DNA from: a virus
Taxonomy: Duplodnaviria; Caudoviricetes
DNA length: 35,308 nucleotides
Direction: 5' to 3' (one strand)
IMG/VR virus record: IMGVR_UViG_3300038317_000237
Location: 1 to 35,308 of that record
The notes under the pieces were generated by a model. The model saw nothing but the letters and a program-made list of their open reading frames with translations, ran no database searches and was not told the DNA's origin. The number at the start of each line of letters is the position of its first letter. The stretch's first letter is position 1. A program made the position numbers and the translations under genes. Positions 1,401 through 15,705 of this stretch are shown one piece after another.

Positions 1401-3370
1401 ATGATAGATGGTATTTGTACCGCTGTTGGCAAGCACCCAAATCAAAAGGAAGCAGACAGAACATATTATCAAAGTACAATTCCTGGATGGTCAGGGGATG
1501 AATGTGCAAGGCTAAAGCTTGGTTTTGTCAAGGTGGATTTTGATGACATTGACAAGAAGACTGGTGAACTGGTTGAACCTGTTAGGGCAATCCCAAGAAG
1601 TGAAGCTGTAAAGCAGATGTTAGATTCCTTGGGAATGAAATACAACCTTATGGTTACAGAGCATGGAAAACACTTTTACTTCAAAATTCCTGAATCAGCT
1701 ATTGATGCCAATAAGATTAACTGGTATTCCCCTATTGGAATCAAGGCAGAATGGAAGCTTGGGGGTGGTCAATCAAAAGAGCATATTCCATATAAAGTGA
1801 ATGGTGTGCTTCGTTCCTGGGCAAAAGGATGCCTTATAAATGAAGATATTGATTATCTTCCAGTATGGCTATACCCCTTGCAGAAATCGTTGAAAAGACC
1901 CTTTGACTTAGAAATTGTTTCAGGTGATAGAAATAACGGATTTTCAAAGTATGCTTTTCATTTGGCTCAAAAAGGATATTCAGCAGAAGATTCCATCAAG
2001 ATTATTAAACTGATGAATGCCCATGTTCTTGAATACCCTTTGACAGACAATGAAATTGAAGTGCTGCTTCGACCTGAAACATAAACAAGCTGAAAGGAAT
2101 TGAAGACCAACAGACTGAAAAAAATTTATCTCATGTTACAGCAGGTGAAGAAGTTATTGAAGAATTTGATGTGATAACTGTAAATGATAATTTCTACACT
2201 TATGATTCAGGGGTGTACAATCCCTTATCAAAAGAAAAGATAAAGTCTTTTATAGTCAGGCAGCACCCTACTGCAAAAATCAATTTTAGGAATGAAGTGC
2301 TTGAATTTGTAAAAGGACAAACTTACAGAGAGTTGGATAACATCCGCACAGATTTAATCAATGTGAAGAATGGAATGTTACGTATTGAAGGTGACACAGC
2401 TAAACGGATTCCACATTCAAAGGATATAGTTCAGTTTACACAATTTAATGCGGAATACAATCCTGATGCTACATATCCACTCTTGGATGACATGCTATTA
2501 AAAGTATTTGATAATAGTTCAGAGCAAATTGAACTTTTTCATCAAATGCTTGGTTACCTCATGATGAACCATGTCAATTATCAAAAATGCTTCTTCATGA
2601 TTGGCTTGCCCAGTTCAGGAAAGTCAACTGTAATAAATATGATAATCTGCTTCTGTGGCAAAGAGAACGTTTCAAGCATTGACCTTAACGCTTTCAACAA
2701 AAGATTTGCGATATCTGAAATTGTAAACAGGACAGCTAATATTGTGGCAGACCGTCAGAAATACAAAATTGAAACATCAGGTATCTTCAAGAGCCTTGTA
2801 ACTGGGGATGGAATCACTGTTGAAAGGAAATATCAGCAATCATTCACTTATTACAACAGTACAAAGCTAATCTTTGGTATGAATCACTACCCTGATTTTT
2901 CTAATGATTTTGATGGTGTGGAAAGAAGGGTTATCTGTATCCCCTGCAATCATGTGTTCAGTAAAACAGATGCAGACTACAACCCTAATATTGAAAAGGA
3001 CTTATCAACTGACCTATGTATGTCGGCATTGCTGAACAAAGCTATTCAGGGGTATATGAGCCTGGTCAAAAATAAAGGCTTCATCACAACTAAAGAAGCA
3101 GAAGCAGCAACAAAAGAATTTGAAAAGGAAAATGACAATGTGCTTCAATGGATTGAAGAAAGTGAAGATGTGCTTGACCGCTTAGAAAGTGAACCTATCA
3201 AAAATGGGCATGTCGGCTTATATCCTGAATATCAGGCTTTTTGCTTAAACAATGGTGAATCAGCAAAAGCACAAAAGGACTTTTCAAGAATTATTTGCAA
3301 CAAGTATAATCTTGAACCTTATCGAAAAAGGATTGGTGGTGAACGAATTCAATTTTATAGAAAAAAGTAG
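1401..3370 (+). pseudogene. Prim-pol plus D5/SF3 helicase (P4-family primase), split by a -1 frameshift near 2080
   Basis: N-part has VDFDD, GKHFYF and PriCT-like GDRNN..F..A; C-part has GLPSSGKST and FKSLVTGD; downstream frame is open back to 2078. Confidence 0.75.
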
Positions 3371-3371
3371 A

Positions 3372-3495
3372 TTGTCCGTCTGTCCATTTGAAAAGGCTTT
3401 TACAACTATCTTTTTATAGGGAAAAATATTTTTAGAAAAAAAGATAGAAAGTAAAAAGAGTTATTATTTATATATAGATAATGGACAAGAGGACA
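3372..3495. other. Putative replication origin of the satellite
   Basis: TGTCC x2 (3373, 3381) and inverted GGACA x2 (3483, 3491) flank ~90 bp of very AT-rich DNA directly after the helicase. Confidence 0.65.
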
Positions 3496-11148: not shown

Positions 11149-12518
11149 TATTCGTACCGCATGGGTATCAAGCATATTGCATTAAGCAGATTATTAATCA
11201 CAATGCATTAGGGTTATTTCTCGATATGGGTTTAGGGAAAACAGTTATCACATTAACCGATGTGAATGACTTGAAATATAACAGATTCGCAGTCAATAAA
11301 GTACTTGTCATAGCACCTAAAAAAGTCGCAGAGGCAACATGGAGCAAAGAAGCACAGAAATGGGATCATCTGAAACTTTTGAGAATTTCAACGGTACTTG
11401 GGACAGCAAAACAAAGAATTAAAGCCTTAAGCATGCCGGGGGACATTTACATAATCAACCGTGAAAATGTGCAGTGGTTAGTTGACTATTACAGAAATGA
11501 TTGGCCGTTTGATATGGTGGTAATTGATGAATCATCCAGCTTTAAAAATCACCAGGCGAAAAGGTTTAAAGCATTAACATGGGTGCGGAGTAAAATATCA
11601 CGTATTGTAGAACTTACTGGTACACCTGCGCCTAATGGGCTAATTGATTTGTGGTCTCAGATTTATCTCCTTGACGGCGGGCAAAGGTTGGGGAAAACTA
11701 TAGGCGGCTTTCGTCAGAGATATTTTGATCCCGACCAAAGAAACGCACAGCAGATTTTCAGTTACAAGCCAAAAGAGGGAGCGGGACAAACAATACAGGA
11801 CAGAATATCGGATATATGCATCAGCATGAGTGCAAAGGATTATCTGGAATTACCCGAATGTGTTTATGTTGATGTTCCAGTTGCACTTGATAGAAAAGCT
11901 GCTAATGCCTATAAGAAACTTGAACACGATATGCTTTTGAAAGTAGATGAAGATGAAATATCAGCAACAACTGCGGCAACACTTGGAAATAAGCTGCTAC
12001 AACTTGGTAATGGCGCTGTATATGACGAAAACCATAAAGCCGTTGTAATTCACAAATGCAAAATTGAAGCCTTTATGGAAACTGTTGAAGCACTGCAAGG
12101 ACAATCAGCTTTAGTATTTTATAATTTCCAACATGACCGAGATAGGATTTTAAAGGCACTTGCCAAAACTAATTTACGAGTTCGAGTGTATCAGGGTCCG
12201 CAGGACGAAACCGGTTGGAATAACCATAAAATAGATATTCTTCTTGCGCATCCGGCAAGCACGGCATACGGGCTTAATTTACAAGAGGGCGGAAACCACA
12301 TAATTTGGTTCGGCCTAAATTGGAGTTTAGAACTGTATCAGCAAGCAAATAAAAGACTTCACAGGCAAGGACAGAAACAGAAGGTATTTATTCATAACCT
12401 TATAGTTCAGGGCAGTGTGGACGAGGATGTACTTGATGCCCTACAGGGTAAAAGCAGTACGCAGGAAAGTCTTTTGAAAGCACTTAAGGTAAGAATTAAA
12501 AAGGTTAAAGGAAAGTGA
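11145..12518 (+). CDS. SNF2-like phage helicase
   Basis: DMGLGKT, DESS, LTGTP, GLNLQ, RLHRQGQ. Confidence 0.92.
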   Translation: MIFVPHGYQAYCIKQIINHNALGLFLDMGLGKTVITLTDVNDLKYNRFAVNKVLVIAPKKVAEATWSKEAQKWDHLKLLRISTVLGTAKQRIKALSMPGDIYIINRENVQWLVDYYRNDWPFDMVVIDESSSFKNHQAKRFKALTWVRSKISRIVELTGTPAPNGLIDLWSQIYLLDGGQRLGKTIGGFRQRYFDPDQRNAQQIFSYKPKEGAGQTIQDRISDICISMSAKDYLELPECVYVDVPVALDRKAANAYKKLEHDMLLKVDEDEISATTAATLGNKLLQLGNGAVYDENHKAVVIHKCKIEAFMETVEALQGQSALVFYNFQHDRDRILKALAKTNLRVRVYQGPQDETGWNNHKIDILLAHPASTAYGLNLQEGGNHIIWFGLNWSLELYQQANKRLHRQGQKQKVFIHNLIVQGSVDEDVLDALQGKSSTQESLLKALKVRIKKVKGK

Positions 12519-12522
12519 TTTT

Positions 12523-12747
12523 ATGATGAATATATTATCAGTTCGGCTTAGAAATTTGAGGGGCGAAAAAAATATAAGTCAACTTAAACTTTCATTGGAA
12601 CTGGGATTTTCACAAAGTGCAGTTGCCGCATATGAAGCGGGACGAAAAAATCCATCAATTTTCAGCCTTTGCTGTATGGCTGATTATTTTGATTGCAGTA
12701 CAGACTATTTACTTGGACGTACAGATAGGAGGAGCAAGAATGTATAA
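12523..12747 (+). CDS. XRE HTH regulator
   Basis: RLRNLR..SQ..YEAGRKNP..DYLLGR. Confidence 0.85.
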   Translation: MMNILSVRLRNLRGEKNISQLKLSLELGFSQSAVAAYEAGRKNPSIFSLCCMADYFDCSTDYLLGRTDRRSKNV

Positions 12748-12961
12748 GTTTGCAAAGAGGCTTCGCCGACTCAGGCGAGGCAAGCTGTTAAGCCAAAACC
12801 AACTTGGCGAGCAAGTAGGAATCGCAAGGGTTACAATTTATGCTTATGAACATGGAGAACGTAATCCAACAGCATATACGTTGTGTCAGCTTGCCGATTT
12901 TTTCGGGGTTTCGGTTGACTTTTTATTGGGGAGGTCGGATAAACGGAATGTACAACCCTAA
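12740..12961 (+). CDS. XRE HTH regulator, paralogue of the preceding gene
   Basis: AGGAGG RBS, ATG at 12740; RLRRLR..SQ..YEHGERNP..DFLLGR. Confidence 0.85.
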   Translation: MYKFAKRLRRLRRGKLLSQNQLGEQVGIARVTIYAYEHGERNPTAYTLCQLADFFGVSVDFLLGRSDKRNVQP

Positions 12962-13356
12962 ATACATAAGCTTACCAAATGATATTTATCGTACAGCTGT
13001 TAATGTATCAAAATCCTATTATGCAATGCTTCGGCGACGAAAAGAAATTGAGGATGAAATAATTCATGAATCGCCATGTTCTGACGGGCAACCACACGGA
13101 AGCGGGACAAGCGATACAACGGGGCAAAAGGCGGAACGAATATTATTAAGGCAGGCTGAAAATGAACGTAAGATTAAAGCAGTAGAACAGGCATGGGCTG
13201 AATTTACAGAGCCATATCAAAGGGAGTTTATAAAATTTAAACCTGTTTGAAAATATCAGAATGGATGATATTAATTTACCGTTTGCGATTATAACCATGA
13301 AGCGAATGAGGAAAAGATTTTTAGTTAGAGTCGCTGAGAACTTAAACGAAATATGA
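12948..13356 (+). pseudogene. ArpU/RinA-like late transcription activator, +1 frameshift near 13237
   Basis: Last early gene before terminase; GQPHGSGTSDTT..KA motif; C-terminal helix MKRMRKRFLVRVAENL lies in the shifted frame. Confidence 0.65.
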
Positions 13357-13460
13357 TACCTAAAAACAAAGTCAAGGGGGTATAATGAGTATAGTAAGAA
13401 AATAAGGTAAAACTTGGCTACCTCCTTAAAAGCGCCGTCTGTAATGGGCGGCGCAAATAT

Positions 13461-13514
13461 GTTAGACTTCAAGCAATAGCTGTGCTAAAGGTGCGAATCC
13501 GAAGTTTAACACCA
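13461..13514 (+). ncRNA. Putative tRNA-like mini-RNA (acceptor/T helix, T-loop, ACCA, no anticodon arm)
   Basis: GTTAGACTTC/GAAGTTTAAC 10 bp plus GG-TGCGAAT-CC, followed by A-CCA. Confidence 0.5.
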
Positions 13515-13602
13515 ATAGTGCTTTACGGTGTAAGTACATAACAAGGCTTGATTAGGATAAGTCCAAAAGAGCAAACCGTTTGGGATATTTAAGCCCACAG
13601 AA

Positions 13603-13632
13603 AAAAGCAGAGGATTTTATTCCCCTGCTTTT
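13603..13632. terminator. Hairpin between convergent transcripts
   Basis: AAAAGCAGAGGA...TCCCCTGCTTTT. Confidence 0.5.
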
Positions 13633-13802
13633 CTGCAAAAATCATCAATGAATTTTTTTATTTCAGCTGTGGGTGTAGTGCCTAACTCTACACACTTTGT
13701 TTTAAACTTATCTAATACATCCGGCTTTAAATCAAGAGGGAAGCGAACGTATTTTGCACGAAGATGTTTTTGCTGGGCTTTGTATTTATTTTCGTTATTC
13801 AA
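13617..13802 (-). CDS. Small ribbon-helix-helix-like DNA-binding protein
   Basis: YVRFPLDLK beta pattern followed by two helices; overlaps the upstream stop codon. Confidence 0.7.
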   Translation of the reverse strand: MNNENKYKAQQKHLRAKYVRFPLDLKPDVLDKFKTKCVELGTTPTAEIKKFIDDFCRKAGE

Positions 13803-13969
13803 TTCAATTCTCTTTTCTTAATGATTTTATAGATATCTAAACAAATATTGAAAAGTATTATTATAGCATTTATTATTACAGCACATTTTATTATGAATCC
13901 CCAACTTGTTGCAAATGCAATTACCAATAATGCAGCAAGGATAAATACCCAAACTCTATTATTCTTCAT
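13799..13969 (-). CDS. 56-aa two-TM membrane peptide
   Basis: GAAAGGAG RBS; MKNNRVWVFILAALLVIAF..IINAIIILFNICLDIYKIIKKRELN. Confidence 0.7.
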   Translation of the reverse strand: MKNNRVWVFILAALLVIAFATSWGFIIKCAVIINAIIILFNICLDIYKIIKKRELN

Positions 13970-14054
13970 ATTGTTAAATCTCCTTTCATATGGTATTCTA
14001 TATTTAAAGCAAAACCCCAAACGGGGGAGGGAGCTTTTACTCCCTCAGCTTTCA

Positions 14055-14159
14055 TTAAGATTTTATTGCTGTAATCAAAGCGGCTATTGCAATGACGGCT
14101 TGGATTATCAACTCAATTAAGTCTTTAGTTGAAAGCTTTTTGCTTTTCTTTTTACTCAT
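14055..14159 (-). CDS. 34-aa basic/hydrophobic peptide, type I toxin-like (not in ORF track)
   Basis: AAGGAGA RBS; MSKKKSKKLSTKDLIELIIQAVIAIAALITAIKS. Confidence 0.7.
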   Translation of the reverse strand: MSKKKSKKLSTKDLIELIIQAVIAIAALITAIKS

Positions 14160-14190
14160 TTATGTATCTCCTTTTCTTTACTGTACTTAC

Positions 14191-14219
14191 ATTATATCAT
14201 ATACGTACGTATATGTCAA
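14191..14219 (-). promoter_or_regulatory. Consensus SigA promoter overlapped by a perfect 18-bp palindrome
   Basis: TTGACA-17-TATAAT with extended TG; CATATACGTACGTATATG at 14198-14215. Confidence 0.85.
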
Positions 14220-14250
14220 TACTTTTACATACAAATTAGAAATATTTTCA

Positions 14251-14286
14251 AAGCATCTCACTAAAGCGTGAGGTGCTTTTCTTTTA
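14251..14286 (+). terminator. Intrinsic terminator-like hairpin
   Basis: AAGCATCTCAC-TAAAGC-GTGAGGTGCTT followed by a T-rich tail. Confidence 0.6.
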
Positions 14287-14306
14287 CCCATTCGGAGGAT
14301 TAAAAA

Positions 14307-14495
14307 ATGAACTGTATAAAGAAAATAGCCGACCATGATTGTAATAACTGCCCGTGCGGCTATATAAAAAATAAAAAAATACACTGCGGCAGGTGCGAGT
14401 ACAGCAACGTACTAAAGACGGGAACGACGAGCTGTATGCTGCCGAGGTGCGCTAAACTATTGAAACGAGGTGGTGATGCATGTGGCGAAAGGTAA
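14307..14495 (+). CDS. Small Cys-rich phage protein
   Basis: GGAGG RBS; CNNCPC, CGRC and CMLPRC motifs. Confidence 0.6.
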   Translation: MNCIKKIADHDCNNCPCGYIKNKKIHCGRCEYSNVLKTGTTSCMLPRCAKLLKRGGDACGER

Positions 14496-14928
14496 ATATC
14501 AGAAGTGGCTGACTCAGGATGGACACACACTTCTTGAAGCGTGGGCGAGGGATGGACTGACGGATGAGCAGATTTCTCACAATATGGGAATTGCCACGTC
14601 AACTTTATATGATTGGAAAACAAAATATCAGGAGATTTCGGACGCCTTAAAAAAGGGTAAAGAAGTTGTTGATATTGAAGTTGAAAATACACTCCTTAAA
14701 AGGGCTTTAGGTTATAAGTATAAAGAAGAAAAAATCGAAACCGATGAAGCGGGCGGAAAAAAAATAACAACTACAACAAAAGAAGTTGTACCCGATACAA
14801 CCGCTCAAATCTTTTGGCTTAAAAACCGTAAACCTGAACAATGGAGAGAAAAGCAGACGGAAAATCAAAATATCACTGCTGAAGATGACCCAATTACAAA
14901 ATCACTTAAGGAGAATTTCGGAAAATGA
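14482..14928 (+). CDS. Putative terminase small subunit (HTH type)
   Basis: WARDGLTDEQI..TLYDWK..PDTTAQIFWLKNR; overlaps the terL start. Confidence 0.75.
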   Translation: MAKGKYQKWLTQDGHTLLEAWARDGLTDEQISHNMGIATSTLYDWKTKYQEISDALKKGKEVVDIEVENTLLKRALGYKYKEEKIETDEAGGKKITTTTKEVVPDTTAQIFWLKNRKPEQWREKQTENQNITAEDDPITKSLKENFGK

Positions 14929-15705
14929 GTTTATCAGAAAAACAAAAACAAATACTTACTTTTCCGTATTCCGGTAAATCAGCGCTGATTTGCGATGGCG
15001 CTGTCCGCTCCGGCAAGACATCTATCACGTCATTGTCCTTTATCCTATGGGCAATGGGCAACTTTTCCAACCAAAATTTCGGAATCTGTGGAAAAACGGT
15101 AATATCAGCTGAACGAAACGTAATTAAGCCCTTACTTGGAATTAAATATTTGAGAGAACAGTTTACATTGCACTTTGCAAACCACATATTGACAGTGTCG
15201 AGAGGACGCAAAACAAATACATTTTATGTGTTCGGCGGTAAAGACGAAGCGTCATATATGCTTATACAAGGTGTAACTCTTGCCGGCGTGTTTTTGGATG
15301 AAGTCGCATTAATGCCGGAATCATTTGTTAACCAGGCACTTGCCCGCTGTTCCGTTGAGAGTTCAAAATACTGGTTCAACTGTAACCCCGAGGGTCCACA
15401 GCATTGGTTTTATCGGGAATGGATTTTAGACCCGGAGCATAAGCATAACGCCGAACATATTCATTTTCTGCTGGACGATAATCCATCCTTAAGTGAAGCA
15501 AAAAAGCAGGAATATTACAGCAGCTATTCCGGCGTTTTCTATGACAGATATATTTTGGGGAAATGGGTAGCTGCTGACGGGCTTATATATCCTGACCAGG
15601 CGAACGGACAGGGTATTGTTCCGAACCAGCCACGCGACTATGTAAAATACGTGATAAGTATCGACTATGGCACGCTAAATCCTTTCTCAGCGGGTTTGTA
15701 TGGTT
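14925..15705 (+). pseudogene. terL: PBSX-family terminase large subunit, truncated and fused in frame to tnpV
   Basis: DGAVRSGKT, LDEVALMP, FNCNP, SIDYGTLNPF; similarity stops after SAGLYGL. Confidence 0.85.

Follow-up and report, generated by a model that had tools for sequence, protein, structure and literature searches.

The element at positions 13461 to 13514 of the window, the 35,308-nucleotide viral stretch analyzed here (IMG/VR record IMGVR_UViG_3300038317_000237), resembles the top half of a tRNA more closely than chance would give. It is a poorer likeness than the preliminary description held, and it belongs to a widespread, uncatalogued set that we term tRNA shells. Judged from sequence, the chances seem evenly balanced that the shell acts as an RNase P cut signal punctuating a short late-leader RNA. 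The preliminary description had presented an anticodon-less mimic in the phage late leader that tRNA scanners overlook, and this was borne out: ARAGORN called no tRNA or tmRNA gene in the whole window, and Rfam scoring of positions 12000 to 15000 gave seven weak matches, none at cut-off and none to Y RNA, GOLLD, or ROOL. Between the roles proposed for it, a processing signal for late RNA is still the best reading.

The window runs from replication genes through XRE regulators to the small and large terminase genes, as annotated with PHROGs. The region around the shell contains the following features:

12948..13356, + strand: late-activator-like gene of a distant RinA/ArpU type, with a frameshift near 13236
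13381..13386, + strand: TATAAT -10 box of a predicted late promoter, without a consensus -35; transcription would start near 13393
13393..13460, + strand: 5' leader module with CCTCCT at 13421-13426, a GC-rich hairpin at 13432-13454, and an AAATAT spacer ending in A-2 U-1
13461..13514, + strand: tRNA shell, its acceptor-like stem pairing 13461-13468 with 13503-13510 (10 bp in the window allele), with an inner hairpin region at 13469-13485, a 2-bp T hairpin at 13490-13500, discriminator A13511, and C-C-A at 13512-13514
13513..14306, - strand: allele-specific cassette behind the shell, with small ORFs at 13617-13802 and 13799-14020, a perfect sigma-70 promoter at 14219-14191, a hairpin with A/T runs near 13601-13633, and a terminator-like hairpin at 14250-14279
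14307-14495, + strand: 62-aa ORF with no PHROG match
14470..14928, + strand: small terminase gene, the first recognized late gene (phrog_309, E 3e-59)

The activator-like frame of 100 aa stops early, most of its 59 homologues are 135 aa long, and contigs of three sequencing runs carry one base fewer at 13236. Its relative P0054 matched TIGR01637/TIGR01636 at an E value of about 1e-4, below the cut-offs, and the nearest named Atlas clusters of the gene are DUF722 and DUF1492. The arpU label first attached to it keeps a weak RinA/ArpU likeness in its favor, although the matches fall under the cut-offs and the gene is frameshifted in the window. The late promoter is activated by RinA/Ltr-type regulators encoded 5' of it (excerpt of PMC13123087). 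The TATAAT at 13381-13386 was not called by a sigma-70 scan; a -10-like box sits at the equivalent place in most related leaders, and contigs of other phages join the window sequence at 13393. Activator relatives were found in Anaeromassilibacillus, Ruminococcaceae, and Clostridium records, and we infer a clostridial host for the window phage.

The leader module is common to the window and locus L072, though L072 has a different upstream gene. Its GC-rich hairpin showed one compensatory change, and the same layout recurs in many leaders: most related leaders have a CCTCCT/CTCCTT anti-Shine-Dalgarno-like tract in their first 100 nt, followed by a GC hairpin, and often a CAT, the complement of a start codon beside a ribosome-binding site, a few bases upstream of the tract. 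With relatives' leaders as queries, no trans target was found at two or fewer mismatches in two host-family genomes, and none of 209 sites in the window stood out as a partner. Behind the shell, other alleles part from the window sequence beyond 13512 and match it again from about 14307-14329, the insert being different or absent; in the window, the cassette ORFs encode a 61-aa ribbon-helix-helix-like protein (weak Pfam match) and a hydrophobic 73-aa protein.

The window looks like a decayed prophage: the polymerase and primase frames are split, and the large terminase is cut short. Between 14925 and 20408, similarity to the large terminase ends near residue 264 and the frame runs into the unrelated domain phrog_24764, 3' of which lie an XRE gene, two methyltransferases, and a 656-aa ORF; an insertion or an assembly error terminates the phage late region here. 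Between 26484 and 34388, methyltransferase, specificity-like, and helicase ORFs stand in split frames, and we take them to resemble a type I restriction-modification locus.

The letters of the element were as first reported: 54 nt at 13461-13514, a 10-bp stem with all pairs closed (pair 5 the sole G-U, pair 3 U-A), a 19-nt insert, GG-UGCGAAU-CC, an A-CCA end at 13511-13514, and an AT-rich leader whose AAATAT spacer lies directly 5' of G+1 (13461). The predicted fold has a free energy of -14.9 kcal/mol (z -2.75), equalled by 3 of 200 shuffles. A descriptor of tRNA-top geometry, blind to positions -2/-1 and 73-76, matched five times over both strands of the window, and an AT/G start (the slash standing before G+1) together with an ACCA end was found in this element alone. 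An origin by chance is excluded by the shuffle folding and by the descriptor census given below. The interior fared less well, since the AGCA/UGCU hairpin proposed as a D-arm differs from the inner hairpin that folding predicts: the minimum free energy fold of the window pairs AGC with GCU and forms neither that hairpin nor the GG/CC T hairpin, and alleles with G at position 9 form a 6-bp arm at 9-25 between an 8-bp stem and a 2-bp T hairpin.

Close relatives, which we call type A, define what is kept. The element also occurs in L046 and in L072, where it sits behind a gene unlike the activator of the window, and L057 retains the 5' half alone. The three complete alleles (window, L046, and L072) all keep pairs 1-8; among these pairs, one differs on both sides (A-U to G-C) and one on a single side. 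Pair 9 is broken by G9 in L046 and L072, and pair 10 is broken in L046. The covariation looked for among homologues thus amounts to one compensatory change in an 8-bp stem, with pairs 9-10 unconserved, and the 12-bp helix of 10 + 2 pairs first described belongs to the window allele but has only 8 bp of conserved stem. The T stem is 2 bp in all three alleles, the distance from T-loop to discriminator is 12 nt in all three, and AU before G+1 is kept. Among contigs from sequencing runs, the window allele recurs unchanged in X1 and X8, whereas those of X4 and X7 carry T13469G, the G9 allele being deeper there than the window allele; X4/X7 contigs diverge after 13512 and read CAA, and X1/X5 contigs end in G-CAA. 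The encoded CCA of the preliminary description is therefore a property of the window allele, one of five with a visible 3' end, the other four reading CAA; R73-C74-M75-A76 is kept. In the RNA-seq run, X7, element-bearing contigs also span the antisense cassette, so that neither transcription nor ends can be read from them.

Further type A copies were sought by exact and degenerate searches, which returned no match, one match, and 22 matches; of the 22, one was type A (the viral L072 again) and the rest were tRNAs or chance. Cultured phages gave no real type A match, and 401 host-family genomes gave seven weak matches, with the three inspected all due to chance. The window copy is a weak member of its family and may be drifting.

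The wider set was drawn from late leaders gathered behind the same activator and by two motif scans; removal of duplicates, cut-off loci, and matches outside late leaders left 70, many of them related and 15 picked for a type-B or type-D motif. Across these, the descriptor found 29 distinct matches in 23 leaders versus one on the reverse strands, and 20 doublet shuffles of the leaders gave 0-6 matches (mean 2.3); a few of the 29 are probably chance matches. Their interiors span 6-100 nt, CCA is encoded in 7, and an AT/G start is present in 14 versus a background of 7%, a feature to which the descriptor is blind. Several leaders hold two or three consecutive shells, and arrays with other hairpin modules are common. 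A part in EF-Tu binding or aminoacylation, suggested earlier, is weakened by the 7/29 encoded CCA ends, as against 60/60 for host-family tRNAs. Most shells are missed by tRNA scanners and Rfam. ARAGORN called nothing in 60 activator loci nor in the array loci, and the Rfam tRNA model scored 2 of 20 loci; shells with longer interiors (L055, L008, and L426) do score as tRNA. The near-full-length copies in L014 and L069 have anticodon loops that differ from each other.

Structured interiors of 60-100 nt replace the anticodon/variable region in L055 (3470-3601), L008 (3231-3338), the first shell of L239 and of L269, and L274. Shells were also seen 3' of a large terminase gene (L077) and within a long non-coding stretch (L353). 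A generic mini-tRNA pattern run over 5 of 64 parts of the viral contigs gave at least 120 loci, mostly tRNA/tmRNA-like 3' ends; 76 of the matches were not ARAGORN calls, and two of these 76 had 6-7 acceptor pairs. A pattern of the same kind gave 42 matches in 401 genomes, with one clear shell (L353) in the matches listed among the 30 fetched. BLAST of the whole L268 array against cultured phages returned nothing. Other phages carry a family of tRNA-like 3' halves that end in CCA, have a short T stem, and are not called by ARAGORN (L101, L118, L163, L165, L177, and L191).

Two other modules recur in these leaders. An H-type pseudoknot, made of a CCGCC...GGCGG stem, a short AAUA linker, and a co-varying loop pairing, lies near the leader start in L233 (=L002), L239, L253, L257, L259, L010, L016, L032, L287, L288, L292, and L300; it had no Rfam match in those scored and is missing from the window. 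A hairpin of CAGCCGG, a purine loop, and AGACCG was seen in L008 (3207 and 3395), L026, L035, L204, L243, L283, and L285, often just 5' of the final terminator-like stem. The idea that a shell replaces the terminator was weakened, as most leaders with a shell retain a terminator-like hairpin at their end.

A sister family, type B, marks the limits of conservation more sharply. It accounted for 20 of 62 pattern matches, of which 16 were distinct and 14 complete. Conservation spans -4 (ATAT) to 76, and beyond 76 no position reaches more than 8 of 14 copies. U-1 is present in 14/14, A-2 in 13/14, and A73, C74, and A76 each in 14/14, with position 75 being C in 9 copies and A in 5. Ninety percent of cells are paired, with three both-side changes, and the inner helix was fixed in advance by the search pattern; the covariation score exceeded 499 of 500 shuffles, and the both-side pair count was not above the control (115/500 shuffles). 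Pair 2 is mismatched in 6/14, and the T-loop is unconserved at 5-10 nt. The type B covariance model R1 matched L007, L009, L047, and L353, and not the window, L046, or L072. Type B and the window element share a slot and an outline but belong to different families.

For an RNase P cut signal, the sequence of events would be as follows. The upstream activator would switch on the promoter at 13381, and transcription would give a short leader RNA ending at a terminator-like hairpin farther downstream, some of it continuing into the late genes. A cut by host RNase P at AU/G13461 would free a 5' RNA of ~68 nt, made up of CCUCCU and the hairpin, and thereby define its 3' end, while the rest of the RNA would begin with a base-paired 5' end; trimming from the 3' side, possibly accompanied by repair of CCA starting at C74, would then yield a small shell RNA. 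In relatives, the equivalent cut would free adjacent cargo RNAs, such as abiF-like RNAs.

What the shells keep is consistent with this proposal. Bacterial RNase P recognizes the 12-bp length of acceptor plus T stem, U-1/A-2, and RCCA, according to an excerpt of PMC11143913, and the element shares with tRNA (RF00005) and minihelix substrates a G1-C72 acceptor stem, a T-loop-like heptamer between GG and CC that lies 12 nt from the discriminator, an A-2 U-1 leader, and an R-C-(C/A)-A end. The leader is single-stranded, with AAATAT/G and ACCA in the window and RCAA in other alleles. The 12-nt spacing is kept, but of the roughly 12 bp that a substrate has from G+1 to a T-loop, only 8 + 2 pairs are conserved. 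Because interiors and anticodon loops vary, the features that are kept are those that RNase P reads. A 7-bp acceptor stem plus discriminator is present, with 7/7 pairs in three alleles; the cloverleaf is not, a 19-nt interior standing between acceptor and T arm and Rfam and ARAGORN results lying below threshold. Unlike tRNA, the element has no anticodon arm and no D-loop GG, its T stem is 2 rather than 5 bp, and G replaces U55. The missing D-loop GG counts, along with the 2-bp T stem, against reading by RNase P. The D-loop appears dispensable for the enzyme (excerpt of PMC4919913), and B. subtilis precursors without CCA are still cut (excerpt of PMC1874595).

Among three host-family genomes (G001, G002, and G140), a type-A RNase P RNA was found in two and a CCA/poly(A)-polymerase-family gene in two, and none had an RNase Z match over the family cut-off; in line with this, all 60 tRNAs called in G001 and G140 encode CCA. 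The 3' cut that full tRNA-type punctuation needs is thus without a named enzyme in those genomes. Two further points temper the proposal. Ordinary tRNA genes have AT at -2/-1 in 29/60 host and 148/357 other cases, a rate equal to that of the shells, so inheritance alone could explain AT/G across families; and 47 of the 70 leaders had no descriptor match, so the shell is dispensable.

Inheritance is the core of one alternative, which we think unlikely: tRNA genes in the leader slot would have been eroded by internal deletion, the pairing would reflect recent descent and module swapping, and the copy would be inert. It would account for the continuous series from near-full pseudo-tRNAs (L014, L069, and L426) to bare stems (L249), for the 2-bp T stem, the mostly lost CCA, and the half-deleted L057 copy, and for the AT/G rate, and frameshifted or truncated genes lie nearby. 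A decaying relic sits poorly, however, with pairs 1-8 being unbroken in three alleles and showing a compensatory change, with type B conservation sharply bounded at -4 and 76, and with the same shell lying behind two different upstream genes. Compared with single internal deletions of 417 ARAGORN tRNAs, a sample comprising 60 from two host-family genomes and 357 others, type A had 22/51 mismatches at best, and 47 of 60 randomized controls came as close. The element is thus no simple deletion of an ordinary tRNA in that sample, the outcome that the preliminary description had named as fatal to it, nor does it match ordinary tRNA ends, as would a fragment left by deletion or by integration (the latter covered in an excerpt of PMC9897764). 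A tRNA-Cys origin, hinted at by CTGCAA in the G9 allele, was unsupported by the same comparison.

Another possibility, which we consider improbable, is that maturation serves to make the shell RNA itself, which would end in CCA and act as a decoy for defense enzymes whose target is the acceptor end or T arm of tRNA, such as toxSAS, nucleotidyltransferase, and acetyltransferase toxins. Types A and B both keep R73-C74-M75-A76; since CAA is the commonest non-CCA end of non-host tRNAs (24/357), it could plausibly be repaired to CCA; acceptor sequences vary between shell families; and toxSAS FaRel2 reads the acceptor stem (excerpt of PMC11559606). Yet few shells encode CCA (7/29), a shell without an anticodon arm could not decoy anticodon nucleases, and the large variable interiors would be superfluous. 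Very improbable is an uncut cis-acting fold of the nascent late leader that aids passage of the downstream terminator or shields the message, its tRNA likeness incidental: the element does lie between promoter and terminator-like hairpins, the H-type pseudoknot and the CAGCCGG..AGACCG hairpin do occupy the same slot, and, by eye, the first hairpin before the shell mostly lacks a U-run (12/14 with at most 4 T in 8 nt, versus 5-6 in four shell-less leaders), but these leaders are related and the contrast is not independent, type B conservation ends exactly at the pre-tRNA ends, and RinA/Ltr proteins are promoter activators (excerpt of PMC13123087).

An RNase P cut signal of this kind would have partial counterparts among known RNAs. 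The tRNA-like domain of tmRNA consists of an acceptor and T arm without an anticodon arm; the element differs in having no G3-U70, tag frame, or pseudoknots, its CCA is unconserved, and ARAGORN called no tmRNA. A likeness in processing is seen with YrlA, a Y RNA with a tRNA-like module of D, T, and acceptor-like parts that in M. smegmatis is cut by RNase P and gains CCA (excerpt of PMC4201824). YrlA, however, adjoins an Rsr/Ro60 gene and has an Rsr-binding stem, whereas the acceptor stem of the element closes the whole RNA, as in tRNA; a PHROGs scan of 38 window ORFs gave no Ro60-type annotation. Phage tRNA regions also hold non-coding RNAs to which no role has been assigned, as with T4 RNAC/RNAD (excerpt of PMC3014915) and GOLLD/ROOL, ROOL averaging 581 nt (excerpt of PMC5737381). 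GOLLD and ROOL are far longer than shells, which are short, swappable, located in temperate-phage late leaders, and without a match to either Rfam family. In lambdoid phages, the pR'-tR' short RNA from the late promoter is processed to the small regulatory RNA StxS; there, per an excerpt of PMC7547250, RNase E makes the cut and Q antitermination acts as the switch. In the shell leaders, the cut is probably marked by the tRNA mimic, and the target searches gave none. Rfam has no family that we found for shells as such. A literature search, with most subscription papers outside it, returned no description of anticodon-less tRNA shells in phage late leaders, nor did the three of six supplementary files searched of PMC10690425, which reports 10,006 candidate viral RNAs, contain a match.

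Beside shells, the loop motif and stem of abiF RNA (RF03085) recur in L008, L010/L050, L055, L353, and L426, at the following positions:

L055, 3612-3648
L008, ~3350-3390
L010, ~3110-3150
L353, ~530-570
L426, 1201-1240

The stem lies directly behind a shell in L055 and L008, within the array in L353, and behind a collapsed shell-like stem in L010/L050. In the gut phage L426, the order is shell, abiF-like stem, and ATAT/G tRNA-like shell, upstream of the small terminase gene. The L055 stem, the sole phage copy with an Rfam score, reached 36.1 bits against the RF03085 cut-off of 37; as positive controls, abiF RNA before an Abi_2 gene scored 48 bits in L112 and 41.6 bits in L424. Unlike abiF RNA proper, the phage copies have no adjacent Abi_2 gene: none was found in the array loci, nor in the records of L008 and L010 (49% and 56% complete). 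The motif is missing from the window and hence bears on the shell family rather than on the window copy.

In AbiF, a type III toxin-antitoxin system, the antitoxin is abiF RNA, and RNA mimics can let phages evade the related ToxIN, according to an excerpt of a review (PMC13064643). The orphan abiF-like RNAs beside shells are candidate RNA anti-defense mimics. More broadly, and only tentatively, clostridial temperate phages may express from the late promoter a modular small-RNA array in which shells, the window element being one, serve as processing and stabilizing scaffolds, much like the tRNAs of engineered tRNA-spaced guide arrays, and free interchangeable cargo, including AbiF antitoxin mimics that would disarm defense during virion building. 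The motif also gave six matches in 401 host-family genomes, four of them orphans (L420, L421, L422, and L425) with no Abi_2 gene in the locus, with their own sigma-70-like promoter boxes, and outside shell arrays, which argues against a phage-specific role.

If shells are RNase P cut signals, a slot left empty by annotation in many temperate phages of gut and fermentation clostridia would be an RNase P-cut RNA operon, and the shells would be natural minimal RNase P substrates, with a T stem down to 2 bp. Such a role would explain the persistence of anticodon-less pseudo-tRNAs in phages. Should the array reading also hold, the abiF-like RNAs in the arrays would represent a testable RNA-based counter-defense.
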